Shown here one piece after another: positions 1,922 to 61,369 of a stretch of 64,000 bases of DNA. The stretch is taken from positions 3,059 through 67,058 of the forward strand of contig JAABQD010000010.1 in assembly GCA_011391635.1 (NCBI GenBank). The letters run 5' to 3'. The translations under genes were made by a program, and so were the position numbers. Below the pieces are notes generated by a model that searched no databases, was not told where the DNA came from, and was given only the letters and a program-made list of their open reading frames with translations. The stretch is from Sulfurimonas sp. (GTDB lineage: Bacteria; Campylobacterota; Campylobacteria; Campylobacterales; Sulfurimonadaceae). Each line of letters starts with the position of its first letter. The first letter of the stretch is position 1.

Positions 1922-2374
1922 ATGAAAACACTTTTTTTACTTCTTTTGCCACTTTTGCTTTTGGCTCAAATGCTCCAAGTTGGCGACACTGTAAAGGAAG
2001 TCTCACTCAAATCACAACACGACAAAGAGTATATACTCAAAAAAGATGGCATGTGGATTATTTGCTGGGACAAAGTACAAACAAGCATTGCCAATGAGTA
2101 TTTCAAAGCATTCCACATGCCAACAGATGTTAATCTCATCGTGGATCTCTCCCAAGCTCCAGAGGGAATTTTAAATCTTTTTATCCTTCCAAGAATGCGA
2201 AATTATGAGCATCCTATACTTCTAAGCTACGATGAAGCGTATAATCTGACACTTCCTTACCAAGAAAATCATCTCACGCTTCTCTCTATCAAAGAGAGCA
2301 AACTCCTCAAAATAGAGTTTATCGAGGATGAAAAAGAGTTCAAAAATAAACTTGATACAAGTAGACTAAAGTAA
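1922..2374 (+). CDS. Exported hypothetical protein, possible thioredoxin-like/YtfJ-like fold
   Basis: Signal peptide MKTLFLLLLPLLLLA; QVGD...SLKSQ resembles the start of AhpC/TSA proteins; no CxxC. Confidence 0.6.
   Translation: MKTLFLLLLPLLLLAQMLQVGDTVKEVSLKSQHDKEYILKKDGMWIICWDKVQTSIANEYFKAFHMPTDVNLIVDLSQAPEGILNLFILPRMRNYEHPILLSYDEAYNLTLPYQENHLTLLSIKESKLLKIEFIEDEKEFKNKLDTSRLK
2351..2371 (+). promoter_or_regulatory. HAIR-like (HspR) operator 1 upstream of grpE-dnaK
   Basis: CTTGATA-N7-ACTAAAG versus HAIR consensus CTTGAGT-N7-ACTCAAG. Confidence 0.5.
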
Positions 2375-2399
2375 CTTTACAAAAATAACTAAATATACT

Positions 2400-2429
2400 C
2401 TTGACATTATTACACTCAATATGTATAAT
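2400..2429 (+). promoter_or_regulatory. Sigma70 promoter of grpE-dnaK with overlapping HAIR-like operator 2
   Basis: TTGACA(2401-2406)-N17-TATAAT(2424-2429); CTTGACA-N7-ACTCAAT at 2400-2420 covers the -35 box and spacer. Confidence 0.8.
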
Positions 2430-2465
2430 AACGCCATCTTTTAAATAAGGAGTATAAAAACGATT

Positions 2466-3026
2466 ATGTCACAACAATCCAACGAAGAATTACAGACAGA
2501 ACCCCTCAAAGAAGAGGCTCATAAAGAGATAAATTCGGATGAAGCTTTGGCTGAAGCTGTTGCTGTAGAAAATGAGTTCGACCTCTTGCAAGAGGAACTT
2601 GCAGCATTAAAAGATAAATATGCTCGTGTTCATGCTGATTTTGATAATATCAAAAAAAGATTAGAGAGAGAAAAATATACTGCAGTAGAGTATTCAAACG
2701 AAAAATTTGCGAAAGATATGATTCCCGTGATGGATTCACTTCAAATGGCGATAGCTTCCGCATCATCCAATGCAGAACCTAGCGAATTGATAGAAAAGAT
2801 AAAAGAGGGAATGGCGTTAACACTTAAACAATTAACGACTTCTTTAGAAAAGCATGGTGTTACAATGGTTTCACATGATGAGCCATTTGATCCAAATATC
2901 CATAATGCAATTCAGAGTGTTGATAGTGATACAGTCGAGAGTGGGCAGATTGTGCAAACTTTTCAAACGGGTTACAAATATAAAGAGAGACCTTTGCGTG
3001 AGGCAATGGTAGTAGTTGCGAATTAA
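2466..3026 (+). CDS. grpE: Nucleotide exchange factor GrpE
   Basis: YARVHADFDNIKKR, FDPNIHNAI, GYKYKERPLREAMV; directly upstream of dnaK. Confidence 0.96.
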   Translation: MSQQSNEELQTEPLKEEAHKEINSDEALAEAVAVENEFDLLQEELAALKDKYARVHADFDNIKKRLEREKYTAVEYSNEKFAKDMIPVMDSLQMAIASASSNAEPSELIEKIKEGMALTLKQLTTSLEKHGVTMVSHDEPFDPNIHNAIQSVDSDTVESGQIVQTFQTGYKYKERPLREAMVVVAN

Positions 3027-5029: not shown

Positions 5030-5048
5030 GCAATTATTCTCTCTCAAC

Positions 5049-5089
5049 TTCCACATGCCAAAAATCTTGGCATGTGGAACTATTTTTTA
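5049..5089 (+). terminator. Inverted pair of the 13-mer forming a hairpin with a U-tract; likely dnaK terminator
   Basis: TTCCACATGCCAA-aaatc-TTGGCATGTGGAA-ctatttttt between convergent genes. Confidence 0.8.
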
Positions 5090-5685: not shown

Positions 5686-6183
5686 ATGCAAGAAAAAATA
5701 AAACACTACGCCAAAGAAACACTCCTCTTTTTTGTTCTGCTCACACTTATTGCAAATGTTTTGAGCCTTTACAAAAGTAGTGATGTAAATAAAGAGCCTC
5801 TTAAAATGGATTCAATTACGCTTATCAAGAATCAAAACTATCAACTTCCACATGCCAAGCCTATTCTCATCCATTTTTGGGCATCATGGTGTCCAACCTG
5901 CTCTCTTGAAGCATCCAACATACAAAAAATTTCCGAGCATTATGAAACAATTACTATTGCTGTAAAATCTGGAAGTGATGCAGAGATACAACAATTTTTG
6001 CAAGAGAGAAATTTAAACTTTCAAGTTGCCAATGATGCGAATGGTATCTATGCCAATAGCTTCAAAATAGCTGCATTTCCGACAACACTCATCTATGATA
6101 AAGAGAAAAATTTAGTTTTTAGTGAAGTTGGTTATACATCAACTTTAGGGTTATATCTTAGAATGTGGTGGAGTAGTTTATAA
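5686..6183 (+). CDS. Membrane-anchored TlpA/redoxin-family disulfide oxidoreductase (start likely MQEK at 5686, not 5605)
   Basis: HFWASWCPTC, FPTTLIYD, N-terminal TM helix. Confidence 0.85.
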   Translation: MQEKIKHYAKETLLFFVLLTLIANVLSLYKSSDVNKEPLKMDSITLIKNQNYQLPHAKPILIHFWASWCPTCSLEASNIQKISEHYETITIAVKSGSDAEIQQFLQERNLNFQVANDANGIYANSFKIAAFPTTLIYDKEKNLVFSEVGYTSTLGLYLRMWWSSL

Positions 6184-6199
6184 GAGGAAAAAATGAGTA

Positions 6200-6230
6200 T
6201 TGGCATGTGGAAATAAATTCCACATGCCAA
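6200..6230. terminator. Inverted pair of the 13-mer between convergent genes
   Basis: TTGGCATGTGGAA-ataaa-TTCCACATGCCAA. Confidence 0.7.
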
Positions 6231-6245
6231 CTTCAAAAAAGAGTA

Positions 6246-11194: not shown

Positions 11195-11413
11195 ATATTC
11201 TCCTTTAACCTTTTTGATGGTACATTTAAGATTTATAGCTTTTTCTAATCTATTTAAAAAGATTCTCTTATATCAAAAAAAGAGCCCTTTTGCTGTAGCC
11301 ATAGTACCTAAGAAACCTTAAAAATGTTATAAAGATGTGATATCTTTTTTGTAATAAATGCGTGATTGAGTAGTTTTGAGAAGGATAATTTGAAAAGATT
11401 TTGGAGTTTTATT

Positions 11414-11446
11414 TTCCACATGCCAAAGTGTGATTGGCATGTGGAA
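11414..11446. terminator. Inverted pair of the 13-mer downstream of the 11458-11934 gene
   Basis: TTCCACATGCCAA-agtgtga-TTGGCATGTGGAA; no U-tract. Confidence 0.6.
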
Positions 11447-11457
11447 TTACAAAATTG

Positions 11458-11934: not shown

Positions 11935-12046
11935 ATTTTTATCCTTTTTTTGAATTACTATATTCTACAATTTAATAGTTAATTGTTATAAATTAAACAT
12001 GCTAATTGTTCCAAAATTTATAAACTCTTGGCATGTGGAAATCTAA

Positions 12047-13339
12047 TTACTTTGTCAATCGCACTCGCACAGATTGCTCATGTGCATGAAGCCCCTCTGT
12101 ATTGGCAATCAAAGCACACTCTTCGCCTATCTCATTGATAGCTTTTGCAGAGAAGGAGATAATCGATGTTTTTTTCATAAAGTTTTCAACTCCAAGAGGA
12201 GAGTAAAATTTCGCTGTACCCCCTGTTGGAAGTGTGTGATTTGGTCCTGCGACATAGTCTCCGATTGCTTCGGGAGTATTGTGTCCTAAGAAAATTGCAC
12301 CTGCATGTTTGATAAATGGTAAAAGTTCAAAAGGCGAATTTGTCGCTACCTCCAAGTGTTCTGGTGCTATCTCATTCATCAACTTCAGAGCTTCATCCAT
12401 ATCACGCGTTACAATAATTGCTCCTCGCTCCTCGATAGATTTTCGTGCTATCTCTTGGCGAGGAAGTTTTAAAAGCCAGTTTTCAAGCTCAATTTTAACT
12501 GCATCCGCCAGTTTTTGTGAAGGTGTAATCAATATAGAACTTGCCATTTCATCATGTTCTGCCTGAGAGAGCATATCAATAGCCAAATGCGATGGATTTG
12601 CACTCTCATCTGCAAGGATTCCTATCTCACTTGGTCCTGCAATCATGTCAATATTTACTTCCCCAAAAACCATTTTTTTTGCAGTTGCAACAAAAATGTT
12701 TCCCGGTCCTGTAATGACATCCACTTTTGGAATACTCTGGGTGCCATACGCCATAGCAGCAATTGCACTTGCCCCGCCAACTTTATACACTTTTGTCACA
12801 CCACAAAGATGACATGCCGCAAGTAAAAGCTCATTTGGCTCATTGTTGGGTGTGGGCGTACAGACGATGATATTTTCCACCCCTGCAACTTGTGCGGGAA
12901 TCACATTCATCAAAAGAGAGGATGGATACGCCGCTTTTCCACCAGGGATATAAAGTCCTGCACTATCTACTGGTGTCACTTTTTGCCCAAGAATCGTTCC
13001 ATTTGGCTCATCATCAAACCAACTTTTCGGTTTAAGTTTTTCATGATATATTTTAATTCTGTCATACGAAAGATGAAGGGCTTTTTTCAAAGTTTCATCC
13101 AGAGAATCATACGCTTTTTTCATAGATTCTAGCGAAATAAGCAAATCTTCATCGGCATGTGGTGTCCAACTGTCAAACTTTGTTATATGTCTTTTGAGTG
13201 CTTGATTTTTCTCTTTTTTTATCTCATCAATAATAGTTCCAACTATTGCACTTACATTTGCAATATCCATTTTTCCTCGTCCAAGAAGCTCATCAAAACT
13301 TGCTTGAAAAGTATTATCCGTTGTTTTTGTAAAAATCAT
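12047..13339 (-). CDS. hisD: Histidinol dehydrogenase
   Basis: GLYIPGGKAAYPSS, DMIAGPSEI, LSQAEHD, APEHLE, GPNHTLPT. Confidence 0.98.
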   Translation of the reverse strand: MIFTKTTDNTFQASFDELLGRGKMDIANVSAIVGTIIDEIKKEKNQALKRHITKFDSWTPHADEDLLISLESMKKAYDSLDETLKKALHLSYDRIKIYHEKLKPKSWFDDEPNGTILGQKVTPVDSAGLYIPGGKAAYPSSLLMNVIPAQVAGVENIIVCTPTPNNEPNELLLAACHLCGVTKVYKVGGASAIAAMAYGTQSIPKVDVITGPGNIFVATAKKMVFGEVNIDMIAGPSEIGILADESANPSHLAIDMLSQAEHDEMASSILITPSQKLADAVKIELENWLLKLPRQEIARKSIEERGAIIVTRDMDEALKLMNEIAPEHLEVATNSPFELLPFIKHAGAIFLGHNTPEAIGDYVAGPNHTLPTGGTAKFYSPLGVENFMKKTSIISFSAKAINEIGEECALIANTEGLHAHEQSVRVRLTK

Positions 13340-13767: not shown

Positions 13768-14275
13768 TACTTCCTACCTTATTCAATAACTCTTCTGCAC
13801 ACTCTGATGCACTTTTTTTCTCTACATTTATAACTATATCAGCTAATGCCAAATATTCGGGTCGTCTTATATCATACAACGCCTTTGCTTTTTTTAAATC
13901 TTTTAGCAAAGGTCTTTTTTTCAATTTTTGGGTTGCATTTGGATGTTTTTTAATTCGCTTGAGAATCGAATCAAATGGCGAATCTAAAAAAACAATTGTA
14001 CCTATATTTTTCAAATTCTCCACTTTATAAAAACCGCCACCTGTTGAAATAAGTGTATTTTTAACACTATTTTCAAGCCACATGCCAACATTTTTTTCTA
14101 AGCCCCTAAAATAGGCTTCACCCTCATCTTCAAAAATCTCTTTTATCTTACGATTTTGCATACTCTCGATTAAATCATCTGTATCCACTGCAATATAATC
14201 AGAGATTTTTATAAACTCTCTGGCTATGCTCCCTTTTCCTACACCCATAAATCCGATTAAAACTATATTTTTCAC
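13760..14275 (-). CDS. aroK: Shikimate kinase
   Basis: IGFMGVGKGS, FEDEGEAYFR, ISTGGG, KRPLL. Confidence 0.95.
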   Translation of the reverse strand: MKNIVLIGFMGVGKGSIAREFIKISDYIAVDTDDLIESMQNRKIKEIFEDEGEAYFRGLEKNVGMWLENSVKNTLISTGGGFYKVENLKNIGTIVFLDSPFDSILKRIKKHPNATQKLKKRPLLKDLKKAKALYDIRRPEYLALADIVINVEKKSASECAEELLNKVGSNV

Positions 14276-14289: not shown

Positions 14290-15576
14290 CTATGCCATAA
14301 ATGAACTCATATCAAAATCTGGCTTTGTTTTTTTTATTTTTATATAAACACGCACCGGTGCTATTATATTGAACTCTAAAATTATCATACTAAGTATAAA
14401 ACAAAGTGAAGAAATTTCTAATAAAATAGGTGCATAAAATGAGCCTAAAAATCCAATAAGTGCAATTATAAAGAGAATAAACTGCAATCTAGCCAAATTT
14501 TTGTTGATAAATTCATTCATTGTAGGAATACTCATATATCCAGCTGCGTTGAGATGAAACCACACAAGAAATGGAACAATCTTATAGAGCATGCCCATCA
14601 TGATAGACATGATAAAGCCACCACCTATTAGGATTGCAACCATTACAACATATTCATGCTTGAAATATTCATCAAATATCCACAAAAATGCACCAAGCGT
14701 CAAAAATATACTCGCACTTCTCCAGTACCAAACAGTCACATCACTGATAGGACGACGACGCTCATTGAGTTTTTTCCAAACTGTTGTCGCATATGCCCAA
14801 AAGAAAAGAGTTATCCAAAGCTTTGCAAAAAGTGCATAACTCTCATCATAAAGGTTTAAAAAAGCCCATAGAAGAAGCCCGATAGGGATGAGCCAAATCA
14901 CTCTTTTTTTACAAAAATTTTTAAACTTAGGAGCGACATAAAACATTGGAAGCACTTGGAAGGAAACGCCAATAATCAAAATCCCAGCAAAACCAAAAAT
15001 AGCCCATACACTATGAATATTTGCAAGAGCTACATGAAGGGCTGAAAAATCTTTGAGGAGGTACGAATAGAGCAAAAAAAGCCCCATAAAAAGAGTAAAA
15101 AATGCGAACAGTACGCTATTTTTCATCGATTTGATTGTCGGAGTCACATTACTAACACCGCGAATGGCGATGGCGATAGGAATAAGAAGTAACAAAAATC
15201 CAGCTCCAAGCAAAACAAAAGCCAAAAAGCCAGAAAGAGAGCTTTGCCATAAAAATGTAACCAACAAAGCAATCAGACCAAAAGAGAGTAAAAGATGTGC
15301 ATAAGTCGCAACAAGCTTCACTTTTGCTATTTTTGCTCCAGCTAACACTGGAAGCATCTGCATCAATGCTCCAAGCATCACAAAAGCAAAAAAACCAATC
15401 GTTATGGCATGTGTAACTGCAATTGACTCTAAAGAGTACCTACTCATAAGTGCTGAGGCGTCACTAAAGAGAAGAATCAAACCAGCGATAATGCCAAAAA
15501 GAGGTGCTGTTAAAAAAAACCTCAGCGGTGCAGAAATAGGCGGTGCTTGGTCAAGCGACAAGCCATTAAAATCCAC
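14290..15576 (-). CDS. Multi-pass membrane protein (NnrS-like / hemerythrin-associated), GTG start
   Basis: About 12 TM helices; SLDQAPP..PLRFF, THAITIG, GALMQMLPV, GMLYKIVPFLVWFHL; RBS GAGAAGG. Confidence 0.7.
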   Translation of the reverse strand: MDFNGLSLDQAPPISAPLRFFLTAPLFGIIAGLILLFSDASALMSRYSLESIAVTHAITIGFFAFVMLGALMQMLPVLAGAKIAKVKLVATYAHLLLSFGLIALLVTFLWQSSLSGFLAFVLLGAGFLLLLIPIAIAIRGVSNVTPTIKSMKNSVLFAFFTLFMGLFLLYSYLLKDFSALHVALANIHSVWAIFGFAGILIIGVSFQVLPMFYVAPKFKNFCKKRVIWLIPIGLLLWAFLNLYDESYALFAKLWITLFFWAYATTVWKKLNERRRPISDVTVWYWRSASIFLTLGAFLWIFDEYFKHEYVVMVAILIGGGFIMSIMMGMLYKIVPFLVWFHLNAAGYMSIPTMNEFINKNLARLQFILFIIALIGFLGSFYAPILLEISSLCFILSMIILEFNIIAPVRVYIKIKKTKPDFDMSSFMA

Positions 15577-48132: not shown

Positions 48133-48182
48133 AAACTTATTTTACCACAGTAAACTTTTGATAAAATTTTAGAAAAAGGGTC

Positions 48183-49493
48183 TTGATGCTATATTTTTTA
48201 TTTTTATTGGTTTTGATTTTTTCTGCTTATCTCCTCTTTTTGTTCAAAAGAGTAAATAAATACAGATACGATACAGGGCATGACTATATCTACAACCTCG
48301 AAAAAAATCTCATAGCTCAAACCAAAATAGAAAAAAATAGTATTGTTTTGCATAAAAGTTATAAAAATTATGATTCACTTTTTCTCAAAATCAGACTCTC
48401 ACTCAACCCTCTCTCCTATTTTTGTAAACCATACATAGAGATAGAAAATGTAAAACACTATTTTGAATATGGAGCAAGTGGTGTACGATATCTTAATATC
48501 TCTCACATCAAAAGCCATATAGTACGCTTAGAGATGCATTATGCTTCTCTTGGCAGTGATGAAGCAACTGTTTATGGCTACAAAAATGATATCAATCTTA
48601 CCAACAAAATACTTATTCTCGCTCCACATGCCGATGATGCCGAGATTGCAGCTTTTGGACTCTACAAAAAAGCAAGTGATGTGACCATTGCCGTCACAAC
48701 GGCTGGAGAGTATGGAGCATGTAACTATTGTGATATTTATGATAATGACAAGACCAAACAATCCCTCAAAAAAGCAGAACTGAGAATATTTGATGCTTTA
48801 TGTGTCCCGCTTCTTGGAAATGTTACGATTGAAAACTCTTTTACTTTAGGTTATTTTGATTTAAGCCTCAAATGGATGCATGACCACAAGGGAGAGAGTG
48901 CTTCTTCCCTTATCCAAGGTATCGATGATATTAATAAATTCAGAAAAGTATCTCATGCAAAAGTGCAACTGCCACATCTTGCCAAACCTGTTTATAGTTC
49001 TTTTTTAGAAGATTTAATAAGCATTATAACTCAGACCAAACCAGCCATTATTCTCACGCCACACCCAACAATTGACAGACACTCTGACCATAAATACACA
49101 ACACTCGCTCTTATAGATGCACTCAAAGCAACAAACCATTCATGCAAACTTCTGCTCTATACAAACCACTTAAAGCTCAGCGAAACATACCCGATAGGCG
49201 AAATCAACTCCTCTATCACACTGCCACCTAATAAAGAGGATTTTTACTTTGATTCTATCTACTCATCAGAGCTTGATTACAATCTTCAAGTGGATAAGTT
49301 TTTTGCCCTAGAAGCGATGCATGATTTGAGAGATTCACTCATCTTTATCTCCATCAAACAGTCGATAAAACACCTTAACAAAATGATAAAAAGAAAGTTT
49401 TTTGGAAAAGATAAAAGCTACTACAAAAGAGCTACAAGAGCGAATGAACTCTTTTTTGTCGTAGAGAGTGAGAATATAGATAAATTACTGTAG
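48183..49493 (+). CDS. PIG-L/LmbE-family de-N-acetylase with N-terminal membrane anchor
   Basis: LAPHADDAE, TTAGE, HPTIDRHSDH. Confidence 0.75.
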   Translation: MMLYFLFLLVLIFSAYLLFLFKRVNKYRYDTGHDYIYNLEKNLIAQTKIEKNSIVLHKSYKNYDSLFLKIRLSLNPLSYFCKPYIEIENVKHYFEYGASGVRYLNISHIKSHIVRLEMHYASLGSDEATVYGYKNDINLTNKILILAPHADDAEIAAFGLYKKASDVTIAVTTAGEYGACNYCDIYDNDKTKQSLKKAELRIFDALCVPLLGNVTIENSFTLGYFDLSLKWMHDHKGESASSLIQGIDDINKFRKVSHAKVQLPHLAKPVYSSFLEDLISIITQTKPAIILTPHPTIDRHSDHKYTTLALIDALKATNHSCKLLLYTNHLKLSETYPIGEINSSITLPPNKEDFYFDSIYSSELDYNLQVDKFFALEAMHDLRDSLIFISIKQSIKHLNKMIKRKFFGKDKSYYKRATRANELFFVVESENIDKLL

Positions 49494-50690: not shown

Positions 50691-51446
50691 TTGTCATATA
50701 TCCTTACACTAAACCCTAAATATCAAGATTTTGAGCCGTATCTTATTGGAATTCAAGAGATTTTTAAAAGCTCCCATGAAAGTATCCACAAAGCGAGAAA
50801 TGAACTTAAAATTATTGAACTAAATGGTCTGAAATGTGTTGTTAAATCTTTTAAAGTTCCACATGCCATCAATCGAATAGCCTACTCTTTTTTTCGCCCT
50901 TCAAAAGCAAAAAAATCCTATCTCAATGGTATGAAACTCCTTGAACTTGGCATCACTACGCCTGAGCCAATTGGTGTTATAGAATTTTTCAGTGGAGGGC
51001 TTCTAAGAGAGAGCTACTTTATCTCAATCTATGAACCCTACGATTTCACTATACGAGAAGTTTTTCACCACAAAGTGAGTACCTATCAAGATATTCTCAG
51101 AGAGTTCGCAAAGTTCACTTTTGCTCTTCATCAAAAAGGTGTCTGGCATGTGGATTATTCACTTGGAAATATTTTAGTAACTGTACTAGAAGATAGCTAC
51201 AGATTTTCACTCGTAGATATTAACAGAATGAAATTCAAAACCATTCACCCACTTGAGGGTCTCACAAATTTTAATAAATTTTGGGCAAAAGATGAAAATG
51301 ATTTGATTATTTTAGCCGTTGAGTATGCAAAAATGGCAAACATAGATACACAAAAAGCTATTGAAATTTTGGTCAATGAGGCGAAGTTTTTGGAGGCAAA
51401 AGTGAAATTAAAAAGAAAAGTTAAAGCCCAAACAAAGCACTTTTAA
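50691..51446 (+). CDS. LPS kinase (Kdo/WaaP family)
   Basis: VVKSF, WHVDYSLGNIL, LVDIN. Confidence 0.75.
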   Translation: MSYILTLNPKYQDFEPYLIGIQEIFKSSHESIHKARNELKIIELNGLKCVVKSFKVPHAINRIAYSFFRPSKAKKSYLNGMKLLELGITTPEPIGVIEFFSGGLLRESYFISIYEPYDFTIREVFHHKVSTYQDILREFAKFTFALHQKGVWHVDYSLGNILVTVLEDSYRFSLVDINRMKFKTIHPLEGLTNFNKFWAKDENDLIILAVEYAKMANIDTQKAIEILVNEAKFLEAKVKLKRKVKAQTKHF

Positions 51447-52386
51447 CATTCTCAAATAACTTCTCTTTTTCGCTCTTGGCATGTGGAATCATAAAATTGT
51501 GTTGCAACTTCTCATCTCCAACACCCTTCCATCTTGCAGAACTTGCAAAGAGAGTATCCGCAAAAAATGTCATTGTCGGCGTACCAACCAAAGATGCCAA
51601 ATGATAAGTTCCCGTGGAAGTGCTTACAAAAAGTTTGAAGCGACTTATGAGTTTTGCGAAATAAATAAGTCCATCAAGTGAGAGATAAAAAACAACATCT
51701 TCGCCGTGAAGTCTATTTTGCATCTCTTCATACAACTCTTTTTCATCAGGTCCAAAAGTAAGAACTACTTGGTACTTGCCTTGATTTAAAACTTCTCGGA
51801 TTAAAACTTCATACTCATCTAAGTTCCAATTTGCATCACTGCTTCCGCCAAAACCTACATGAAAAGCGATTATCTCTTTTGTGATGTCATGATTGATACA
51901 AAAAACTTCATACACTTTTTTTGCATCGCTAAACTCCAAAAGCGGTTTTTTATACTCTAAATTTATCTCAGGAAAGAGTATTTTTGTAAGTTCTAGGTTA
52001 TACTCAAACTCCGCCATTTTCACTTCGCTTCTTCGCTGAGAAACTCGGTGTGTATAAAAAATTTGTGCTATTTTTGTAGCAGGTGCTATGCGGATTGGAA
52101 TGCGTGCCAAAAACTGAGCAAGGGCAACGCGGGTATTTGAGAAGAGTGTTATGGAAGCATCAATTTTTGCATCACGAAGTTTTTTTGCTAGAGTTAAGAT
52201 GGAACTTTTACCATCATCGACAATTACCTCATCAATAAATCCACATGCCAAAGCTAAAGCTTCATTCATTGGTGCGACAAGGGCGATGATTGTGTCTTGT
52301 GGATTATGTTGCTTGAGTGCATGCATAGCAGGAAGAGCGGTTATAAAATCGCCAAGTTTATCAGTACGAACGACTAAAATATTCAA
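51421..52386 (-). CDS. GT9 heptosyltransferase-family protein
   Basis: RTDKLGDFI, STSTGTYHLA. Confidence 0.85.
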   Translation of the reverse strand: MNILVVRTDKLGDFITALPAMHALKQHNPQDTIIALVAPMNEALALACGFIDEVIVDDGKSSILTLAKKLRDAKIDASITLFSNTRVALAQFLARIPIRIAPATKIAQIFYTHRVSQRRSEVKMAEFEYNLELTKILFPEINLEYKKPLLEFSDAKKVYEVFCINHDITKEIIAFHVGFGGSSDANWNLDEYEVLIREVLNQGKYQVVLTFGPDEKELYEEMQNRLHGEDVVFYLSLDGLIYFAKLISRFKLFVSTSTGTYHLASLVGTPTMTFFADTLFASSARWKGVGDEKLQHNFMIPHAKSEKEKLFENVKSALFGL

Positions 52387-53192
52387 TCTTTTCTCACTCG
52401 CACAAATGAAACGAATTTTGGTTTGCCTTTGTTCGTAAAACCAAAATATTTAAAGGTAATTATATCGCCAATTTTTGGAGGATTTTTTCTTTGTTCTTGG
52501 CTAAATCCACTTCCTATAAAAAACTGTATTCCATCTTTAAGTTCCACCTGCAAACTTCCCATCATGCCAGTGAATTTTCCACTTCCTGCTTTGTAGCCAA
52601 TCACTTTTGCTTCCATATCTTCGGCTTCTTTTACTTTCAAAACAGAGTCGCTTTTCCCATCAAAATAGTCTCTCTTCGCATCTTTGATAATAACGCCCTC
52701 GCCACCTTTAGCGATGACATTTTGAAAAAACAGATTCAACTCTTTTTTATCTTGACACACTTTTTGTTCAATAATATCCAAATGCTTTATTTTATGCTCA
52801 TCTCTGTATTTTTGAGCTTTCTCCAATCGTACAGAAAAATTACCCTCGGCATGTGGAACTTCAAAAATCATATATTTTATCTTACTCCACTCTGCCTTTG
52901 GGACTTCATCCATTACGATAGACTGAATATTTTCATAATCTAATCGTTCCGTCCATAGTTCGCCATCCAACTCAAAAGGCGGAAGTTTTTGCGTAAACCA
53001 CGCAGGAGCATTTATGGCTTGACCTTGTCTTGAGAGAAGTTTTTTGCCATCCCAGTAAGCCCGTATGCCATCAAGTTTTTCAGACATCATCCAGCCAGAA
53101 ATATTTTGATCGCTGTAGATATTTGCTTTTTGCAGCGTGAGTGCGTTACCATTTAAAAAGAGTAAAAATAGAGCTACAAAAAGTTTCCACAT
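52383..53192 (-). CDS. Periplasmic minimal ATP-dependent DNA ligase (LigE type)
   Basis: Signal peptide; SEKLDGIRAYWDG, LDGELW, EGVII, OB domain GSGFS..ITFKY..KPKF. Confidence 0.88.
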   Translation of the reverse strand: MWKLFVALFLLFLNGNALTLQKANIYSDQNISGWMMSEKLDGIRAYWDGKKLLSRQGQAINAPAWFTQKLPPFELDGELWTERLDYENIQSIVMDEVPKAEWSKIKYMIFEVPHAEGNFSVRLEKAQKYRDEHKIKHLDIIEQKVCQDKKELNLFFQNVIAKGGEGVIIKDAKRDYFDGKSDSVLKVKEAEDMEAKVIGYKAGSGKFTGMMGSLQVELKDGIQFFIGSGFSQEQRKNPPKIGDIITFKYFGFTNKGKPKFVSFVRVRKD

Positions 53193-53194
53193 GC

Positions 53195-54520
53195 CTAATT
53201 TACCCCAATCTGAAAGTACTCAAACCCATACTTTTTCATCTTCTCTTTGTTAAACTGGTTGCGTCCATCAAAGAAAACTGGATTTTTAAGCAATTTTTTC
53301 ATCTCATCAAAATCAGGGCTTCTAAATTCTTGCCACTCTGTGACCAAAACAAGTGCATCTGCATCTTTTAACGCCTCGTATTTACTCTCAACATACGACA
53401 CTTTTTCATTGCCTTTTAAGTAGTGTGTTTGTGCTTCGTGGATTGCTTTTGGGTCATACGCTACGACATTTGCCCCTCTGCTTGTGAGTTCATTTATGAT
53501 TGTGATGGAACTTGCCTCTCGCATATCATCCGTTTCAGGTTTGAAACTAAGCCCCCAAACAGCGAAAGTTTTTCCACTTAAATCTGCACCGAAACGGGTG
53601 ATTACTTTGTTTGACATTACATATTTTTGGTCGTAATTTACCGCTTCAACCGCATCCAAAATTCTAGGGTTATAACCAAAATCTTTTGCCGTTTTTGCAA
53701 GTGCTTGAACATCTTTTGGAAAACAACTTCCTCCATATCCGCACCCTGGGTAGATGAAACTATAACCGATTCTACTATCGCTTCCTATACCATTTCTCAC
53801 CTTATTGATATCCGCTCCAACGCGTTCACAAATCTGGCTCATCTCATTCATAAAAGAGATTTTTGTCGCAAGCATCGCATTTGCAGCGTACTTTGTCATC
53901 TCTGCCGACTTGATATCCATAGAGATAAATCGGTCGTGGTGCTTCATAAATGGAGCGTAAAGTTCACGCATAATCTCTAACGCTCTCTCACTATCCGCAC
54001 CGATAACAACACGGTCAGGATGTAAAAAATCATTAATCGCAGCACCCTCTTTTAAAAACTCAGGGTTTGAGACGACATCAAACTCTAAATTCACCCCTCT
54101 TTCATCGAGTTGTGCTTGGATAGTCGCTCTTACTTTGTCCGCAGTTCCCACAGGAACAGTTGATTTATCGACCACCACAATGTAATCTTCCATAGCCTCA
54201 CCGATACTTTTTGCAACTGCCAAAACATAACGCAAATCAGCACTTCCATCCTCGCCCATCGGTGTTCCAACAGCTATAAAAGCGATTTGTGCATTTTTTA
54301 TAGCACCACTTACATCCGTTGAGAAATGAAGCGTTTTATTTTTATAATTTTCGAGTGTCATATCTTCTAAACCTGGCTCATATATAGGGATGATGCCTTG
54401 TTTTAAATTCTCTATTTTTTTTGCATCTATATCCACACAAGTTACTTTGTTTCCCATTTGAGCGAAGCACACTCCGCTAACTAGTCCTACATAGCCCGTG
54501 CCGATTACTGATATTTTCAT
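53195..54520 (-). CDS. ugd: UDP-glucose 6-dehydrogenase
   Basis: [26 protein letters not shown]. Confidence 0.95.
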
Positions 54521-56513: not shown

Positions 56514-57769
56514 AACCGCCTTTTGCATGGGATAACTTCTCCGACCAACCTTACCAACTCAAAGATAGAGCGTTTAAAAAAATGATGCGAAAAAAAGAGC
56601 TCTTTTCCCTTACTAAAACATTTTTCACAGCTCTTTTTATCTTGCCAATTTCGCTTATTTTGATGCCATTTATAAAAAGAAAGGATGTAGAATCAAGCAC
56701 ATTTTTTTGTATGGGCGTAGATTTTGAGCGAGAACCAAAGCTTACTTTGGAGCTTTTAGAAGAGTTAGGTGTTGAGAGGGTTTTAGTCCGTTTTAAACTT
56801 TGGGAGATGGAGAAACTTCAGGAGCTAAAAGATTTTATTTCCACATGCCAAGATAAAAAAATCACACTCAAAATTATGCAAGACAGAGAGCATGTGGAAG
56901 ATTTGGAACTTCTCAAAGAAGATTTACGAACCATCTTTTCTACTTTATCTTGGCATGTGGAAATGTTTGAAATTGGCTCGACCATTAACCGTGCAAAGTG
57001 GGGTTTTTTTAGTGTAGATGAGTACAATCGTTTTTTTCAAACTGCTTATGATTTAAAAATTGCAGAGTTTCCACATGCCAAGCTTCTAGGAAGCGGAGTG
57101 ATAGATTTTGAGTATCACTTCACGGCACACACTCTCTTTAATTTTTTCAAATACCACTACGATGGAGTTGCATCCCTTCTCTATGTCGATAGACGCGGTG
57201 CACCTGAAAATAGCCAAATGGGGTTTGATTTATCAGCCAAAATTGCACTCCTTCGCACTATGGTTTGGCTCTCACCAAAAAGTGCAAATGCACTTCACAT
57301 CACGGAGACAAATTGGCCGATAAGCAACACTGCACCTTACGCACCAACGAGTGAACATGAGTGTGTGGATGAGGAAAGTTACGCAAACTTTATGCTTCGT
57401 TACTATCTTTTAGCTTACGCATCGGGGCATGTGGATTCTGTATCTTGGCATCAGCTCATTGCAGCGGGATATGGACTGATTGACAATCGTGATGGAGTTA
57501 GAAAACGCTCCGCTTTTTATGTCTATAAATTTATGGTAAAAAATCTAAAAAATGCCAAATTCCTTCAAATAAATACAACAAAAGAGTACACTATCTTAGA
57601 GGCTCATGTAAACAATCAACTTTTACAAATCCACTGGTCGCTCCAACCTGCGACACTCAAAAATGAAGACTCTTTTGAAGTTTACTCATCAGAGGGAAAA
57701 TTAATAGAAGATGAAACGCTCACTATCAGTGCTTCTCCTCTGTATATTTACACAAAAGACGCGGTATAA
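56510..57769 (+). CDS. Clan GH-A-like TIM-barrel protein of unknown function
   Basis: FEIGSTINRAKWG, LYVDRRGAPEN, LHITETNW; one TM near the N-terminus. Confidence 0.55.
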   Translation: MKPPFAWDNFSDQPYQLKDRAFKKMMRKKELFSLTKTFFTALFILPISLILMPFIKRKDVESSTFFCMGVDFEREPKLTLELLEELGVERVLVRFKLWEMEKLQELKDFISTCQDKKITLKIMQDREHVEDLELLKEDLRTIFSTLSWHVEMFEIGSTINRAKWGFFSVDEYNRFFQTAYDLKIAEFPHAKLLGSGVIDFEYHFTAHTLFNFFKYHYDGVASLLYVDRRGAPENSQMGFDLSAKIALLRTMVWLSPKSANALHITETNWPISNTAPYAPTSEHECVDEESYANFMLRYYLLAYASGHVDSVSWHQLIAAGYGLIDNRDGVRKRSAFYVYKFMVKNLKNAKFLQINTTKEYTILEAHVNNQLLQIHWSLQPATLKNEDSFEVYSSEGKLIEDETLTISASPLYIYTKDAV

Positions 57770-57777
57770 TTGCACCC

Positions 57778-58452
57778 ATGAATAAAAAATACTTACATAT
57801 AAAACTCTCTTTTTGGCTTCTTTTTTTACTCTCGTCTATGCTTTTTATCTTTTTTCCGCAGATAGATTTGTTTGTCACAAACCTCTTTTATGATGGCAAC
57901 ACTTTTCCAGCAAACGGCATGTGGATTGAAGAGTTCTTTTACTACTCAGTACAACCTCTCATCATCGCATTTGCACTCGCTTCTTTAGCGATTTTTACTT
58001 ACAATTTTTTTACAAAAAAGAGTGTTTTAAATGTGAATGCCAAAGTTGTTTTATATCTTCTTTTGGTTTTGGGTCTTGCCCCTGGACTTATTGTAAATGC
58101 TACACTCAAAGAGAACTGGGGCAGAGCAAGACCAGCTGAAACACTCAATTTTGGTGGAACAAAAGAGTTCACTCCAGCCTTCATTCCAAGCAATCAAGGC
58201 GGATACTCTTTTAGCTCAGGTCACGCTGCTGCGGCTTTTTCTCTTTTAGGATTTGCTCTTTTAGCGAAGAAGCGAAGAAACTTTTGGATTGCATTGACAC
58301 TCGCCTATGGCGTGTTTGTGAGCGTTGCCAGAGTCTCCTCAGGTGGACACTTTTTTAGTGATGTTGTAACCTCATTTTTCATAGTTACCCTCTTTACTTT
58401 GAGCATTTATGGTTTTCTCATGCAAGAAGAAGAAAAAAAGGAACTCCCATAA
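57778..58452 (+). CDS. PAP2-family phosphatase (possible lipid A phosphatase)
   Basis: K..WGRARP, SFSSGH, R..SGGHFFSDV. Confidence 0.85.
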   Translation: MNKKYLHIKLSFWLLFLLSSMLFIFFPQIDLFVTNLFYDGNTFPANGMWIEEFFYYSVQPLIIAFALASLAIFTYNFFTKKSVLNVNAKVVLYLLLVLGLAPGLIVNATLKENWGRARPAETLNFGGTKEFTPAFIPSNQGGYSFSSGHAAAAFSLLGFALLAKKRRNFWIALTLAYGVFVSVARVSSGGHFFSDVVTSFFIVTLFTLSIYGFLMQEEEKKELP

Positions 58453-60365
58453 TTTTTCGCAACCAACTTACGCAAATATTATTTGTACTTTGCATCAGTT
58501 TTGTAACGCTTATGGCGATTCGTTTGTCGCTTTATAATTTTTATCTTGCTGACTTTAGCGACCTAAGCAGTGGGGAATTTTACGCTTCACTTTTGATGGG
58601 TTTTCGTGTGGATATGATTACGCTTTTTACCTTCTCCTCTCTTTTTATTTTAGCTCTACTCTTTGTCAAAAACCCCAAAAGAAGAGCTGTGATAGCACTA
58701 GTTTGGGCGATGGTGCTCAACACTATTTTTGTCCTCAGTTTTAGCGATGTTCTCTACTACGACTATATCCACAGACACATGTCGAGTGAAATTTTTAACC
58801 TTGGCGATGATGCGGATATTATTGTGGGCATGGCATTTGGTTCGATGCTCCCCTTTACGCTTGGTGCGATTATTCTCAGTGGTACATTTTTCTATACGAT
58901 TTATAAAGTTTTTTTACAAGAATTAGTGCATTTCATCTTGGGAAAAAAACTCATTTTTCTTACACTCATCACACTTTTAACGCTTTTTATAGGCATAAGA
59001 AATAGTTTCGCAGGGAAAAGTTTTGGAAGTGCAGATGCCTATGCAGTCAACAAAGTAAGTAGCGGAAACTTAGCACTCAACGGCTTTTTTACCATTTACA
59101 GAACGGCAAAAACCTCCTCCAAACACACCCTTACAAAACTCGACGATGCCATAAAAATCACACAAGAGGCAATGCAAACTCCAAATGCACCTTTTCTTGA
59201 TAAAGAGTATCCACTTCTTCGCTCCTACGCCAAAAAGGAGAAGCCAAAATACAATGTCGTCATCGTTTTACTCGAATCTTTTGGAGCAGAGCATGTGGAT
59301 GGTTTTACCCACTACAAAGAGCTGAATGTCACACCCTACTTCAAAAAACTCTCCAATGAAGGGCTGAAATTTACCAATTTTTACTCCAATGGGTATCGCT
59401 CCATTTTTGGTATAACTTCAGTTTTCACAGGCATCACTATCCCGACAGGCTTTGAGTATCTTGGCAAAGGTTTAGAACTCTCCAACCTCAGTTACTTGGG
59501 ACAAGTTGCAAAAAACAACGGATACTCTACACTCTCAATGCAAGCGGCAAATAATCGCTCCTACAGAGTCGATGCTGTGAGCCATCTTGCAGGTTTTGAT
59601 GCCTACTATGGAGCAGATGACATGCCGAACATTGAAGCATGTGATGAGGGAAGAGCACCACTCACTGGCACTTACGACTTTAATATGCTTGATTTTTATC
59701 ACAAAAAACTCAATGCTATGAAAGAGCCATTTTTAGGCTTTGCTTTTACGGATTCAACACACTCAGATTTTTATCTTCCAAGCAAAAAGTTTGAACGCTA
59801 TCCGCATGATTTGAAAAATTACAATGGCTCTTTAAACGCTTATATTTATGCAGATAACTCTATCGAGCGGTTTATGGAGAGCGTAAAAAAAGAGCCTTGG
59901 TTTGAGAGAACCATCTTTATCTTCACCTCAGACCATGGAAGCGGAGATGCCCTAAATGAGATTGCAAGAGCCTATCGTCCTGATGACAAAGCCCTCGACT
60001 CCATTGAGCATTTTAGAATTCCGCTTATCATTTATGCTCCAAAAATATTTGAACCTCAGGAGATTACAACCCTTGGTTCGCACAATGATATTTTTCCAAG
60101 TTTGGTGGATTTGTTAGGGTGGGAAGCAAATATCACAACGATGGGAAGTTCACTTTTTGATAAAAATATCCATGAGAGATTTGCCTACTTTTTTGCAGGA
60201 GACCTCATCGGACTAGTTACAAATGATGGATATGTAAAGTACAATTTTAAAAATATAGTCGAGCAAGTCGGAAGTGAAGCGAATGTAGAAAAGATGAAAA
60301 AGCTTCTTTTTGCCATTGATACAGCCGAAGCTGGACTTTTAGAAAAAAATAGGTGGGCTAAGTGA
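58449..60365 (+). CDS. LTA synthase / sulfatase-family membrane transferase (paralog 3); first ATG is 58512 but the homologous N-terminus extends to ATA at 58449
   Basis: VLLESFG, TDSTHSD, TSDHG, SHNDIFPS; close similarity to paralog 2. Confidence 0.8.
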   Translation: MIFRNQLTQILFVLCISFVTLMAIRLSLYNFYLADFSDLSSGEFYASLLMGFRVDMITLFTFSSLFILALLFVKNPKRRAVIALVWAMVLNTIFVLSFSDVLYYDYIHRHMSSEIFNLGDDADIIVGMAFGSMLPFTLGAIILSGTFFYTIYKVFLQELVHFILGKKLIFLTLITLLTLFIGIRNSFAGKSFGSADAYAVNKVSSGNLALNGFFTIYRTAKTSSKHTLTKLDDAIKITQEAMQTPNAPFLDKEYPLLRSYAKKEKPKYNVVIVLLESFGAEHVDGFTHYKELNVTPYFKKLSNEGLKFTNFYSNGYRSIFGITSVFTGITIPTGFEYLGKGLELSNLSYLGQVAKNNGYSTLSMQAANNRSYRVDAVSHLAGFDAYYGADDMPNIEACDEGRAPLTGTYDFNMLDFYHKKLNAMKEPFLGFAFTDSTHSDFYLPSKKFERYPHDLKNYNGSLNAYIYADNSIERFMESVKKEPWFERTIFIFTSDHGSGDALNEIARAYRPDDKALDSIEHFRIPLIIYAPKIFEPQEITTLGSHNDIFPSLVDLLGWEANITTMGSSLFDKNIHERFAYFFAGDLIGLVTNDGYVKYNFKNIVEQVGSEANVEKMKKLLFAIDTAEAGLLEKNRWAK

Positions 60366-61339
60366 GAATTCTGATTATACTTCCAAACTGGCTTGGCGAT
60401 GCGATTATGGCAACTCCTGCGATTGAACTTTTATCCAAAAACTTTCCACATGCCAAGTTTACTTTTGTTGGAAGTTTTGTGAGTATCGAAGCACTCAAAC
60501 ACCATCCAAAATGTGAAAAAGCAGTTGTGGATGAGACTAAAAAAGCATCGAATAGACTTTTAGCCACTTATAAACTAGCCAGAGAATTAGGTGAATTTGA
60601 TTTGGCGATAAGTTTTAGAAACCAGCTTCACGCTTCACTTTTACTACGCTTTACAAACACCGTAGTCTGCATTGCAAAGCGTTCATGGCACTCTCAATTT
60701 TTACTCTCACACACTCCTAAAATTTCCACAAAGCAACATTTAGTCCAGCAGTATGTACAACTTGCTATGACCAATGTGGACAGTTTTGATGGAAATATTG
60801 GCAGTTTAAAACTTTACATTGAACCAAAAAAATTCTCTCGTCCAACTTTGGGCATCAATGCTGGAGCAACCTATGGAAGTGCCAAACGATGGTATCCTGA
60901 GCGATTTGCGGAAGTTGCGAAAGAGTTTTCAGATGAGTTTGATATTCTTACATTTGGTGGGTCAAATGAAGTTGCAATGGCGAATGAGATAGAAAAAAAT
61001 CTAAAAGCTTGGCATGTGGAAAACTACACCAACTTAGCAGGAAAAACAACTATCGCTGAGTTGTGTGCAAATATCGGCGGATGTTCTTTATTTATCACAA
61101 ATGACAGTGGACCTATGCATGTTGCCGCCGCGTACCAAGTGCCAACCGTTGCCATTTTTGGACCGACAAAACATACAGAAACTTCGCAATGGATGAATGA
61201 AAAAAGTACAATTGTAAGGCATGAAATGGAGTGCAGTCCGTGTATGAAACGCGAATGTCCTCTTGGGCATCACGAATGTATGAAAAGTATTACAGCAAAT
61301 GAAGTAATAGAAGCGATGAAAAAGCTAGAAATTTATTAG
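60362..61339 (+). CDS. waaF: Heptosyltransferase II
   Basis: PNWLGDAIMA, GATYGSAKRW, NDSGPMH, GPT. Confidence 0.92.
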   Translation: MRILIILPNWLGDAIMATPAIELLSKNFPHAKFTFVGSFVSIEALKHHPKCEKAVVDETKKASNRLLATYKLARELGEFDLAISFRNQLHASLLLRFTNTVVCIAKRSWHSQFLLSHTPKISTKQHLVQQYVQLAMTNVDSFDGNIGSLKLYIEPKKFSRPTLGINAGATYGSAKRWYPERFAEVAKEFSDEFDILTFGGSNEVAMANEIEKNLKAWHVENYTNLAGKTTIAELCANIGGCSLFITNDSGPMHVAAAYQVPTVAIFGPTKHTETSQWMNEKSTIVRHEMECSPCMKRECPLGHHECMKSITANEVIEAMKKLEIY

Positions 61340-61343
61340 AGTT

Positions 61344-61369
61344 TTGGCATGTGGAACTTCCACATGCCA
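61344..61369. terminator. Inverted pair of the 13-mer between convergent waaF and hldE
   Basis: TTGGCATGTGGAA-c-TTCCACATGCCA. Confidence 0.65.

Follow-up and report, generated by a model that had tools for sequence, protein, structure and literature searches.

Copies of the word in the window

The window, the whole stretch of 64,000 nt analysed here, contains 52 copies of the core word CCACATGCC (32 on the + strand and 20 on the - strand) and 26 copies of the full 13-mer TTCCACATGCCAA. These counts are identical to those of the original prediction, and its expectation of 0.1-0.2 9-mers per 64 kb is close to the mean of 0.21 cores (maximum 2) in 100 dinucleotide shuffles of the window, in which the 13-mer has 0 copies. 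Positions were taken from a search for the core and the 13-mer, and gene contexts from a simple ORF caller. The latter places 36 copies in ORFs, 11 in intergenic DNA, and 5-6 across gene starts or junctions, in agreement with the 36 in coding sequences, 11 intergenic, and 5 over starts previously proposed.

The two top-strength terminator-like hairpins of positions 4001-24000 are both motif pairs. The first (6196..6234; cores 6202-6210 - and 6220-6228 +; RNA fold -20.6 kcal/mol) separates the convergent ORFs 5605-6183(+) and 6246-9638(-). The second is an inverted 13-mer pair forming a 13-bp hairpin with a T-rich tail (5045..5083; cores 5051-5059 + and 5069-5077 -; -20.9 kcal/mol), between the convergent ORFs 3143-5029(+) and 5080-5589(-). 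Convergent ORFs are also separated by the hairpins at 22987..23022 (cores 22993-23001 + and 23008-23016 -; -23.5 kcal/mol; ORFs 22133-22981(+) and 23023-24651(-)) and at 61340..61374 (cores 61346-61354 - and 61360-61368 +; -20.4 kcal/mol; ORFs 60362-61339(+) and 61382-62806(-)). The hairpin at 11410..11450 (cores 11416-11424 + and 11436-11444 -; -20.5 kcal/mol) lies directly downstream of ORF 11458-11934(-), and went unflagged in the scan for terminator-like sites because it has no T-run. ORF 1922-2374(+) contains two oppositely oriented copies at a spacing of 65 bp (2048-2056 - and 2113-2121 +), and a lone intergenic full 13-mer (12030..12038, -) is found upstream of ORF 12047-13339(-) and downstream of 11458-11934(-).

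Full 13-mers overlap the starts of ORFs 29211-29948(-) (29943..29951, +), 31346-32209(-) (32205..32213, -), and 36663-38648(-) (38644..38652, -). A further copy lies over the start of ORF 14290-15576(-) (15573..15581, +), and another where ORF 52383-53192(-) meets ORF 53195-54520(-) (53187..53195, +). Single copies occur inside ORFs 5605-6183(+) (5848..5856, +), 12047-13339(-) (13154..13162, -), 13760-14275(-) (14078..14086, +), 15594-16034(-) (15922..15930, +), 16095-18950(-) (18495..18503, +), and 31346-32209(-) (31367..31375, +), and a full 13-mer (24761..24769, +) lies in a small ORF adjoining the 542-aa ORF 23023-24651(-). Two copies each are present in ORFs 29211-29948(-) (29514-29522 -, 29796-29804 +), 34938-36647(-) (35005-35013 and 35645-35653, both +), and 60362-61339(+) (60446-60454 +, 61011-61019 -), as well as across ORFs 42008-43063(+) and 43060-44139(+) (42869-42877 +, 43671-43679 -). 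The denser series of in-ORF copies are at 41027..41877 (41027 +, 41219 -, 41501 +, 41869 +; ORFs 40550-41167(+) and 41121-42038(+)), 45993..48632 (45993, 46429, 47153, 47723, and 48624, all +; ORFs 45478-46299(-), 46296-47399(-), 47392-48132(-), and 48183-49493(+)), 50859..52856 (50859 +, 51145 -, 51478 -, 52241 +, 52848 -; ORFs 50691-51446(+), 51421-52386(-), and 52383-53192(-)), and 56841..57924 (56841 +, 56952 -, 57071 +, 57426 -, 57916 -; ORFs 56510-57769(+) and 57778-58452(+)).

Abundance and placement in the genome

The genome is that of an uncultured sulfur-oxidising Sulfurimonas, and its assembly comprises 2.35 Mb in 84 contigs. It contains 1,393 cores (0.59 per kb; 697 + versus 696 -), as foreseen by the original prediction of more than 1000 copies per 2 Mb. 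Markov models of order 1-4, whose expectations are inflated by the motif itself, give only 7-21 cores and 0.1-0.8 13-mers for the whole assembly, and the core count is 273-fold above the expectation from base composition. The top over-represented 9-, 11-, and 13-mer of the genome is the TTCCACATGCCAA/CCACATGCC word. It is found on every contig >10 kb, and is thus not confined to the window. Perfect 13-mers number 538, versus 0-3 copies for any variant with a single mismatch in core positions 4-11. The logo reads A-n-T-T-CCACATGCC-A-A-r-a, with conservation stopping at about -4 to +12; hence, the word is not a mobile element.

Intergenic DNA makes up 8% of the genome yet houses 28% of the copies (3.6-fold enrichment), and copies use all six reading frames. 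Inverted pairs at most 30 bp apart number 82, when 12.6 ± 3.7 are expected. These tight pairs are mostly at gene 3' ends, and 47% of the intergenic ones are at convergent junctions versus 5% at divergent ones. Replichore polarity, which the original prediction regarded as contrary to a role in uptake, is not observed: motif orientation shows no significant correlation with GC skew (rho -0.17, p 0.12), whereas the same test gives rho 0.82 for GC skew against gene orientation and the control word CAAAAGAG, unlike the 13-mer, tracks both skew and coding strand. The longest word-free stretches cover rpoBC together with tuf and the genes of ribosomal proteins, the S10-spc-secY operon, and a low-GC island bearing an integrase. 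The 26 small contigs, which are probably foreign, have 5 copies when 47 would be expected.

Conservation, decay, and dialects in Sulfurimonas

Hundreds of copies of the word are present in 9 of 151 Sulfurimonas species genomes, the carriers being mostly MAGs. Since eight of these are other, independently assembled species, the word is not an assembly artefact. Sites of G000 are perfect in 20 of 23 cases in carrier G101 and 13 of 14 in carrier G165 (87-93%, for ~80% overall DNA identity), when random 9-mers are kept in these comparisons at a rate of 0.16-0.23; farther carriers keep 42-58%. The sister species G109 and G019, although as close as G101 and G165, keep 16% and 11%, which is the random rate. 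There, the sites are mostly relics with 1-3 mismatches, and the mutations are independent in each of the two species; the decayed subclade comprises G019, G109, G114, and G146. The word has been gained and lost at orthologous sites through in-frame point substitutions. Judging from these sequence comparisons, an active force maintains the word in carriers.

A survey for variant dialects, as originally proposed, uncovered across the genus the same word, variants of it, relics, and unrelated words. G059 and G065 contain 258-377 copies of TACATGCCAA, and their sister clade contains 312-363 of TACATCCCAA, which differs from TACATGCCAA by a single G/C switch. In nine other species, words of the YAAACGCMR family number 357-2,255. 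Of the 151 genomes, 20 have ≥200 sites of the palindrome TACATGTA, which has ACATG in common with TTCCACATGCCAA; none of the 151 combines the palindrome at that abundance with the A-type word (TTCCACATGCCAA). The suggestion that this one lineage independently evolved an uptake word was therefore too narrow as to its origin, because the phenomenon is genus-wide with several families of words. A contribution of CATG methylation, also suggested, is weakened because TACATCCCAA and the YAAACGCMR dialects lack CATG.

The genome encodes DprA and, as the original prediction led one to look for, ComEC, with pilin-like genes close to comEC. It also contains an MshL-type secretin cluster (Cts/MSHA-type pilus) with secretin, P-loop NTPase, ATPase, and platform genes, in an order that we take to match ctsD-P-X-E-F of C. 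jejuni; the secretin, ATPase, and platform genes of this cluster gave homologous matches in every genome checked. The ComP-like minor pilin evoked earlier did not turn up, as the search with ComP_DUS (PF16732) gave no match and no ComP homologue. A small ComEA was looked for and not found, and no receptor for the word was identified. In the decayed sister clade, ComEC, DprA, the Cts/MSHA secretin, ATPase, and platform homologues, and a whole Gsp-type T2SS are all present and open, and the competence genes are often closer to those of G000 than are those of carriers G101 and G165. As the tested competence genes are intact, loss of the known machinery does not explain the loss of the word.

Forces that may maintain the word

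As of October 2025, the Neisseriaceae and Pasteurellaceae were the only families for which words of this kind, with matching hallmarks, had been described. We found no published description of the Sulfurimonas word, and in the literature no paper naming Sulfurimonas, Campylobacterota, or Epsilonproteobacteria as carriers of uptake sequences. The genomic hallmarks of DUS/USS are all present: the word is enriched in intergenic DNA, forms inverted pairs at 3' ends, uses all frames, has dialects, is conserved in position, and is accompanied by competence genes. The likeness to the DUS of Neisseriaceae (AT-GCCGTCTGAA with its dialects, for which the minor type IV pilin ComP is the reader) is detailed: a non-palindromic word of 10-13 nt with a very sharp core, at about 0.6 per kb and about 0.8% of the genome, on both strands with no polarity, over-represented intergenically and in terminator hairpins built from inverted repeats, present in every frame within permissive gene segments, at positions conserved in related species, and with dialects that differ by single bases and track phylogeny. 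Unlike DUS, the sequence is unrelated, the phylum is Campylobacterota, there is no ComP_DUS homologue, the candidate machine is likely a Cts/MSHA-type pilus instead of the Neisseria type IV pilus, and one genus has far more words, partly unrelated and one palindromic. The Pasteurellaceae USS types (AAGTGCGGT and ACAAGCGGT), also unrelated in sequence and with ComN as their predicted receptor, similarly have a hyper-abundant 9-mer as core, flanked by weaker AT-rich sequence, are about one-third intergenic, form inverted pairs in terminators, and accumulate in poorly constrained protein segments while being absent from the most conserved genes. The USS core, with its one-off variants, is much less sharp than that of Sulfurimonas. 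Campylobacter jejuni, of the same phylum, has the homologous Cts/MSHA-type cluster, ComEC, and DprA, but selects DNA according to whether a short, frequent site (RAATTY, CtsM) is methylated, and has no hyper-abundant long word, whereas the Sulfurimonas signal is a long exact word whose dialects have no common methylatable core.

We thus lean towards TTCCACATGCCAA being a lineage-specific tag that resembles DUS/USS, serves uptake or self-recognition, and is maintained by drive. From the genome sequences, we infer both biased DNA uptake as the maintaining force and the kind of protein that would read the word. A sequence-specific reader, most likely within the DNA-uptake machinery, would favour double-stranded DNA bearing the word. 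As the candidate machine, the Cts/MSHA-type pilus and its pilin-like proteins would act first, then ComEC and DprA. Word-bearing fragments would be taken up and recombined more frequently, so that point mutations creating or restoring the word would spread in the population by molecular drive, and those destroying it would be replaced. The word would then build up over time at sites where it is compatible with the encoded protein or with intergenic function, and inverted pairs could be co-opted as terminator hairpins.

Any other sequence-specific force maintaining the word would also conserve its positions and leave foreign DNA depleted of it, and the palindromic TACATGTA of the same genus recalls the cyanobacterial HIP1, which is not tied to uptake. 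A less probable, but still credible, explanation is a HIP-like word kept by another cell-internal process, either a DNA-binding protein organising or compacting the chromosome (the main alternative in the original prediction) or a methylation- or repair-coupled conversion bias, as proposed for HIP1. Like HIP1 (GCGATCGC) and the alternate cyanobacterial palindromes, the word is lineage-specific, hyper-abundant, written into genes at a cost in protein sequence, and patchy among relatives, and sister Sulfurimonas species bear the hyper-abundant true palindrome, which shares ACATG and is mutually exclusive with it. Loss or change of the maintaining protein would explain decay and dialect switches, and fits conservation in carriers together with neutral decay despite intact competence genes. 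However, TTCCACATGCCAA is no palindrome, is longer (11 informative positions), and forms inverted pairs at gene ends; such terminators, and islands poor in the word, are what DUS/USS show. Vsr-type deamination repair corrects only C-to-T changes and so cannot keep all 9-11 positions equally sharp, dialects without CATG exist, and we know of no methyltransferase site specifying as many as eleven contiguous positions, nor of a nucleoid protein with about 1,400 exact 13-bp sites. A change of specificity between sister species would also be unexpected for housekeeping architecture proteins.

It is unlikely that the word serves a nuclease or defence system as a mark of self, a non-polar analogue of Chi telling a DNA-degrading or recombination complex which DNA is its own, with unmarked foreign DNA destroyed and an arms race behind its fast change between species. 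Words are indeed lineage-specific with quick turnover, the integrase island and the probable foreign contigs are depleted, and arrays of the motif, as well as a hairpin element flanked by it, adjoin SIR2-like, Mrr-like, and RhuM-like genes. Chi and KOPS/AIMS are likewise over-represented short words recognised by DNA-processing machines, but these are strongly co-oriented with replication whereas the Sulfurimonas word is strand-neutral; Chi words are 5-8 nt long, far less sharp, and not known to serve as terminator pairs, and the candidate nuclease was not identified. Finally, although about eight copies lie within a hairpin element of 58 bp that has TSD-like flanks and 18-19-bp tandem arrays, dispersal of a miniature mobile element is effectively refuted as an explanation, and so is an artefact of assembly or binning, as >99% of copies have no conserved flank, copies are in frame within conserved genes where relatives differ by point substitutions alone, and the word is seen in independent assemblies from different studies.

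If TTCCACATGCCAA is indeed a tag maintained by biased uptake, the Sulfurimonas word would be the footprint of self-DNA uptake tags otherwise known only in the relatives of Neisseria and Haemophilus.

Abundance and placement of the word

The core 9-mer CCACATGCC is present in 52 copies in the window, 32 on the + strand and 20 on the - strand, against 0.21 in dinucleotide-preserving shuffles, and the full 13-mer TTCCACATGCCAA in 26 copies, against none. These counts agree exactly with those of the original prediction, which proposed the word as a new DNA uptake sequence. The window (C84:3059-67058) belongs to an assembly of 2.35 Mb in 84 contigs with 35.8% G+C (genome G000). The whole assembly contains 1,393 cores (0.59 per kb; 697 + and 696 -) and 538 full 13-mers, when Markov models of order 1-4 lead one to expect 7-21 and 0.1-0.8, respectively. 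The word tops over-representation among the 9-, 11-, and 13-mers of this genome, the 9-mer being 273-fold over composition, and is found in every contig larger than 10 kb. Hence, it is not confined to the window, and the extrapolated density of more than 1000 copies per 2 Mb is borne out.

The logo, A(-4)-n-T-T-CCACATGCC-A-A-(A/G)-a, has a sharp core and no extended flank. Its information is limited to about positions -4 to +12, and therefore the copies are not fragments of a longer element. One-base variants at positions 4-11 of the 13-mer have 0-3 copies each, against 538 perfect ones, and substitutions are tolerated at outer positions only (T1>A, 140 copies; A12>G, 60 copies). Direct reading of the 13-mer reveals no stop codon in any of the six frames. 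An origin as a REP or MITE element was rejected, given the lack of extended flanks, the 72% of copies within ORFs, and the point substitutions at orthologous sites.

The orientation of the word does not follow GC skew (rho -0.17, p 0.12); skew itself correlates with gene strand (rho 0.82). There is thus no co-orientation with replication, and a polar word of the Chi or KOPS type, which would have undermined the original prediction, was rejected. The test has power, because it detected the polarity of a control word, CAAAAGAG / GCAAAAGAG, which is 13-24-fold enriched genome-wide, with 897 sense and 286 antisense copies, and correlates in orientation with GC skew (rho 0.53). This control, also found in the Sulfurimonas genomes G019 and G102, is ordinary codon or peptide bias. 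Another candidate, GAAGATAC as a genome-wide word of G109, was rejected, as it is a coding repeat inside a single gene. This large gene (locus L009; G109 C1:69,000-72,800) contains dozens of degenerate repeats with GAAGATAC, encodes a Q-A-E-D-T-type repeat protein, and in k-mer counts gave the impression of a motif spread over the genome.

Genes were called with a crude longest-ORF picker, which reproduces the split of the 52 window copies counted initially: 11 intergenic, 36 within ORFs, and 5-6 over gene starts or junctions. Intergenic DNA makes up 8% of the genome but holds 28% of the copies. The copies within ORFs use all six frames, most commonly as CCA-CAT-GCC. The spacing of copies is near-Poisson, with an excess of opposite-strand neighbours within 30 bp (82 pairs, against 12.6 +/- 3.7 by random placement). 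Intergenic pairs within 60 bp number 86 and are biased to convergent or 3' junctions: convergent genes flank 40 of them, tandem genes another 40, and divergent genes only 4. In the window, five inverted pairs form hairpins of -20.4 to -23.5 kcal/mol in fold energy, at 5045-5083, 6196-6234, 11410-11450, 22987-23022, and 61340-61374, and four of the five are at convergent junctions. Two of these hairpins are the strongest terminator-like sites predicted by a consensus scan of window 4001-24000. The segment 6246-11194 holds an ORF of 1,130 amino acids, presumably a molybdopterin-type oxidoreductase, adjoined by putative 4Fe-4S and NrfD-like ORFs.

Some apparent ORF starts lie inside the word, where TTGGCATGTGG gives TTG or ATG (window 15573, 29943, 32205, 38644, and 53187). 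Similar cases occur among the type II secretion (T2SS) genes of G000 (C1:270416-270844 and 271733-272665), one gene starting with LACGN. In a GspK-like ORF, SWHVE is encoded by the word, which is therefore written into secretion-system genes too.

The longest word-free stretches correspond to rpoBC with ribosomal-protein genes and tuf, the S10-spc-secY operon, sensor-kinase clusters, and an island of 10 kb (C1:95106-105303). The latter, with 30.8% G+C, small ORFs of unknown function, and a gene resembling an integrase, was probably acquired recently. Furthermore, the 26 contigs smaller than 4.5 kb (77 kb in total; e.g., C58 and C60) have 5 cores instead of the 47 expected (P = 7e-15). Their genes are ordinary Sulfurimonas-like ones (multihaem cytochromes, CheA, transporters), and these contigs are probably either accessory DNA or mis-binned from a co-occurring species that lacks the word.

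Outside the window, G000 also carries about eight copies of a 58-bp unit (loci L147-L152; C18:43137-43560, C8:238-440, C73:77268-77420, C12:19514, C7:5405, and C1:202712). The unit consists of the motif with 6-7 nt, CATAGTC, a hairpin, GCCGTCT, and CATGCC followed by a repeat of the 6-7 nt, resembling a target-site duplication. The hairpin is perfect, AT-rich, and of 14-15 bp (TAAAATAAAGTGAA-nnnn-TTCACTTTATTTTA). The whole element corresponds to no Rfam family, the sole match being a sub-threshold plant miRNA attributable to chance. Tandem arrays of 18-19-bp motif units often adjoin the 58-bp unit, with 16 units on C18 and 8 on C8, and the genome G165 shares the AAATCCACATGCCGAACAA array. SIR2-like, Mrr-like, and RhuM-like genes are found beside these units and arrays. 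The 58-bp unit may be a small mobile element targeting or carrying the word, or an island attachment site.

Distribution, conservation, and decay in the genus

The 11-mer TCCACATGCCA was counted in 151 Sulfurimonas species genomes, most of them MAGs. It has 277-1,041 copies in nine genomes (the carriers), 12-102 in another nine, and 0-9 in the rest; the 13-mer has zero copies in sixteen other families of the order. A tree of gyrB alone (95 genomes, with weak deep nodes) places most carriers within one region. With 100/99 support, one clade unites G000 itself (1,041 copies), G101 and G165 (911 and 892), and a subclade with G019, G109, and G114 (73-102), with which G146 (102 copies) groups in a second tree of 30 genomes. 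The carriers G122 and L093 are placed elsewhere on the gyrB tree. As read from these trees, the word may have an old origin followed by losses, or its determinant may have been transferred.

Sites were compared with G000 as reference, sampling 20-100 kb of each relative for alignment. The close carriers G101 (78% DNA identity) and G165 (82%) have 20 of 23 and 13 of 14 G000 sites perfect. They thus keep 87-93% of sites, against about 20% of random 9-mers (0.16 and 0.23 identical, respectively). Among distant carriers, 8 of 19 sites (42%) are perfect in G120 (77% identity; random 9-mers, 0.15) and 7 of 12 (58%) in G117 (75%; 0.12). In the sister subclade, only 7 of 43 sites are perfect in G109 (81%; 0.18) and 4 of 36 in G019 (79%; 0.16), which is the random rate, and most sites are one to three bases off. 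Hence, the ancestor common with G000 had the word at those places, and the force maintaining it was lost in that subclade. Mutations in G109 and G019 are independent, flanks are conserved, and orthologous sites differ by point substitutions without indels. At the position of one inverted pair, the sister subclade has another hairpin, and keeps a hairpin but not the word. Species without the present word show 3.7-4.2 mismatches per 9 at G000 sites, against 2.2-2.6 expected, so the word sits at, or imposes, above-average divergence. The conservation in carriers versus the decay in the sister subclade reveals an active, lineage-specific force on the whole word of 9-11 bases.

The genus provides further dialects, in addition to the same word in nine of 151 genomes (type A). 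The B type, TACATGCCAA, is carried by G059 and G065 as sTACATGCCAAG (377 and 258 copies of the 10-mer), and their sister clade (with G167 and G168; tree support 95/99) has 312 and 363 copies of the C type, TACATCCCAA. The two differ by a single G/C switch in which CATG is lost, and controls number 6-15. YAAACGCMR variants, which occur in a marine clade, have 357-2,255 copies in nine further species, against 30-220 for controls and about 135 in G000 and G102. Because TACATCCCAA and YAAACGCMR lack CATG, the earlier suggestion that its methylation could contribute is weakened as a common factor. In 20 of 151 genomes, the palindrome TACATGTA reaches 200 sites or more, with a maximum of 850 (controls, 20-70), and it was found in G102, G092, G060, and G016, which consequently could not be kept as word-free non-carriers. 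Several of the genomes with the palindrome are closed, in a single contig, and may come from cultured isolates; the assembly of the A-type carrier G101 has 8 contigs and 100% completeness. In the nine A-type carriers it has 14-36 sites, i.e., the control level, and G125 has 291 palindromes with 29 relics of the present word. The A-type word and the palindrome thus exclude one another, and switches leave relics. Genome counts confirmed the families ACATCCCAAG and CTGCGTTT/AAACGCA(A/G), as well as the palindrome; TGATGCTAAG was counted within one locus of 22 kb, which has 11 copies.

Competence machinery

ComEC, truncated by a contig end, and DprA are present in G000, with pilin-like genes near comEC. 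Of the genes that the original prediction pointed to, ComEC was therefore found, and a ComP-like pilin was not: the ComP_DUS domain (PF16732) has no match in the whole genome even at E <= 1. No small ComEA was found in G000 either. In a cluster on C15 (74060-83475), the gene of a secretin precedes those of a P-loop NTPase, an ATPase of the PilB/GspE type, and a platform protein of the PilC/GspF type. The secretin is an MshL equivalog (265 bits for a cut-off of 250), and the gene order corresponds to ctsD-P-X-E-F, the genes for transformation in C. jejuni. In all 16-18 genomes examined, homologues were matched for the secretin, ATPase, and platform genes of this cluster. The cluster at C1:264733-274894, with 12 genes including four pseudopilins, is missing from G102 and G103; it was rejected as the Cts system, being a Gsp-type T2SS.

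Loss or divergence of competence genes was rejected as the cause of decay in G019, G109, G114, and G146, since the genes examined are all present and open. This is the case for ComEC, DprA, the Cts/MSHA secretin, ATPase, and platform homologues, and all 12 Gsp-type T2SS genes. Among these genes no allele pattern tracks the word.

Comparison with known words and interpretation

In the current literature, only two families of Proteobacteria, both host-associated, are described as taking up DNA in a sequence-specific way. The word of Neisseriaceae (DUS) resembles GCCGTCTGAA, has a CTG core, and is bound by the minor pilin ComP through a dedicated domain, and the core of the Pasteurellaceae word (USS) is AAGTGCGGT or ACAAGCGGT. 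The logo found here is unrelated to the USS. It is also unrelated in sequence to the DUS and, with PF16732 absent, the present word is outside the ComP/DUS homology family. Yet, at the level of sequence, it has every hallmark that defines DUS and USS. Both are non-palindromic words, hundreds- to thousands-fold enriched at about 1 per kb (here 273-fold and 0.59 per kb), with strand neutrality and no replichore polarity (697 + and 696 -). Both are enriched in intergenic DNA and form inverted repeats at transcript ends (here terminators predicted from sequence). Both have lineage dialects that follow phylogeny, as here on a gyrB-only tree with weak deep nodes. Finally, both keep their sites in the core genome and are rare in DNA of recent acquisition (here the integrase island and the 26 small contigs), in hosts with a pilus or pseudopilus, ComEC, and DprA.

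To our knowledge, biased uptake followed by recombination is the only mechanism giving such a pattern. We consider it somewhat more probable than its negation that the word is kept in this way, as are DUS and USS: fragments with the word would be taken up preferentially and then recombined, a molecular drive that would maintain it. A different sequence-specific reader, HIP-like or architectural, is a less likely explanation that still deserves attention. Other Sulfurimonas species do carry a palindrome (TACATGTA), as is typical of the cyanobacterial HIP1, but CCACATGCC has GGCATGTGG as its reverse complement and is symmetric at the outer TT/AA only. It seems improbable that the word acts as a non-polar marker of self for a nuclease or defence system, and other or unknown readings share what remains.

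The wider proposal that the free-living Sulfurimonas have a third, independently evolved uptake-tag system has about an even chance of being correct. In this proposal, a receptor on a Cts/MSHA-type pilus would read the word. Fast changes of specificity would give rise to the at least five word types of the genus (CCACATGCC, TACAT(G/C)CCAA, YAAACGCMR, TACATGTA, and TGATGCTAAG), and loss of the reader would let the word decay in real time, as in G019, G109, G114, and G146. The words would then steer gene flow, as barriers or channels between co-occurring species. A literature search, covering few subscription journals, returned no paper on uptake sequences in Sulfurimonas or Campylobacterota. 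By titles, nothing relevant was found on natural transformation in Sulfurimonas, and one paper, a 2009 review, matched on uptake sequences and Epsilonproteobacteria together. Searches for the word itself gave unrelated primer matches only.

For binning these MAGs and for recognizing foreign DNA in them, the density of the word serves as a sharp marker, as exemplified by the 26 small contigs nearly devoid of it. The genus also offers a natural series (carriers, a sister clade in which relics decay, further sister clades one base apart, and a palindromic form), in which the receptor can be sought by comparative genomics and molecular drive can be measured against protein-level selection. If the proposal is correct, this would be a third, unrelated case of uptake tags, in environmental chemolithoautotrophs of another phylum. 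Barriers to gene flow in natural microbial communities would become directly testable, and self-DNA tags would be a recurrent solution rather than a curiosity.
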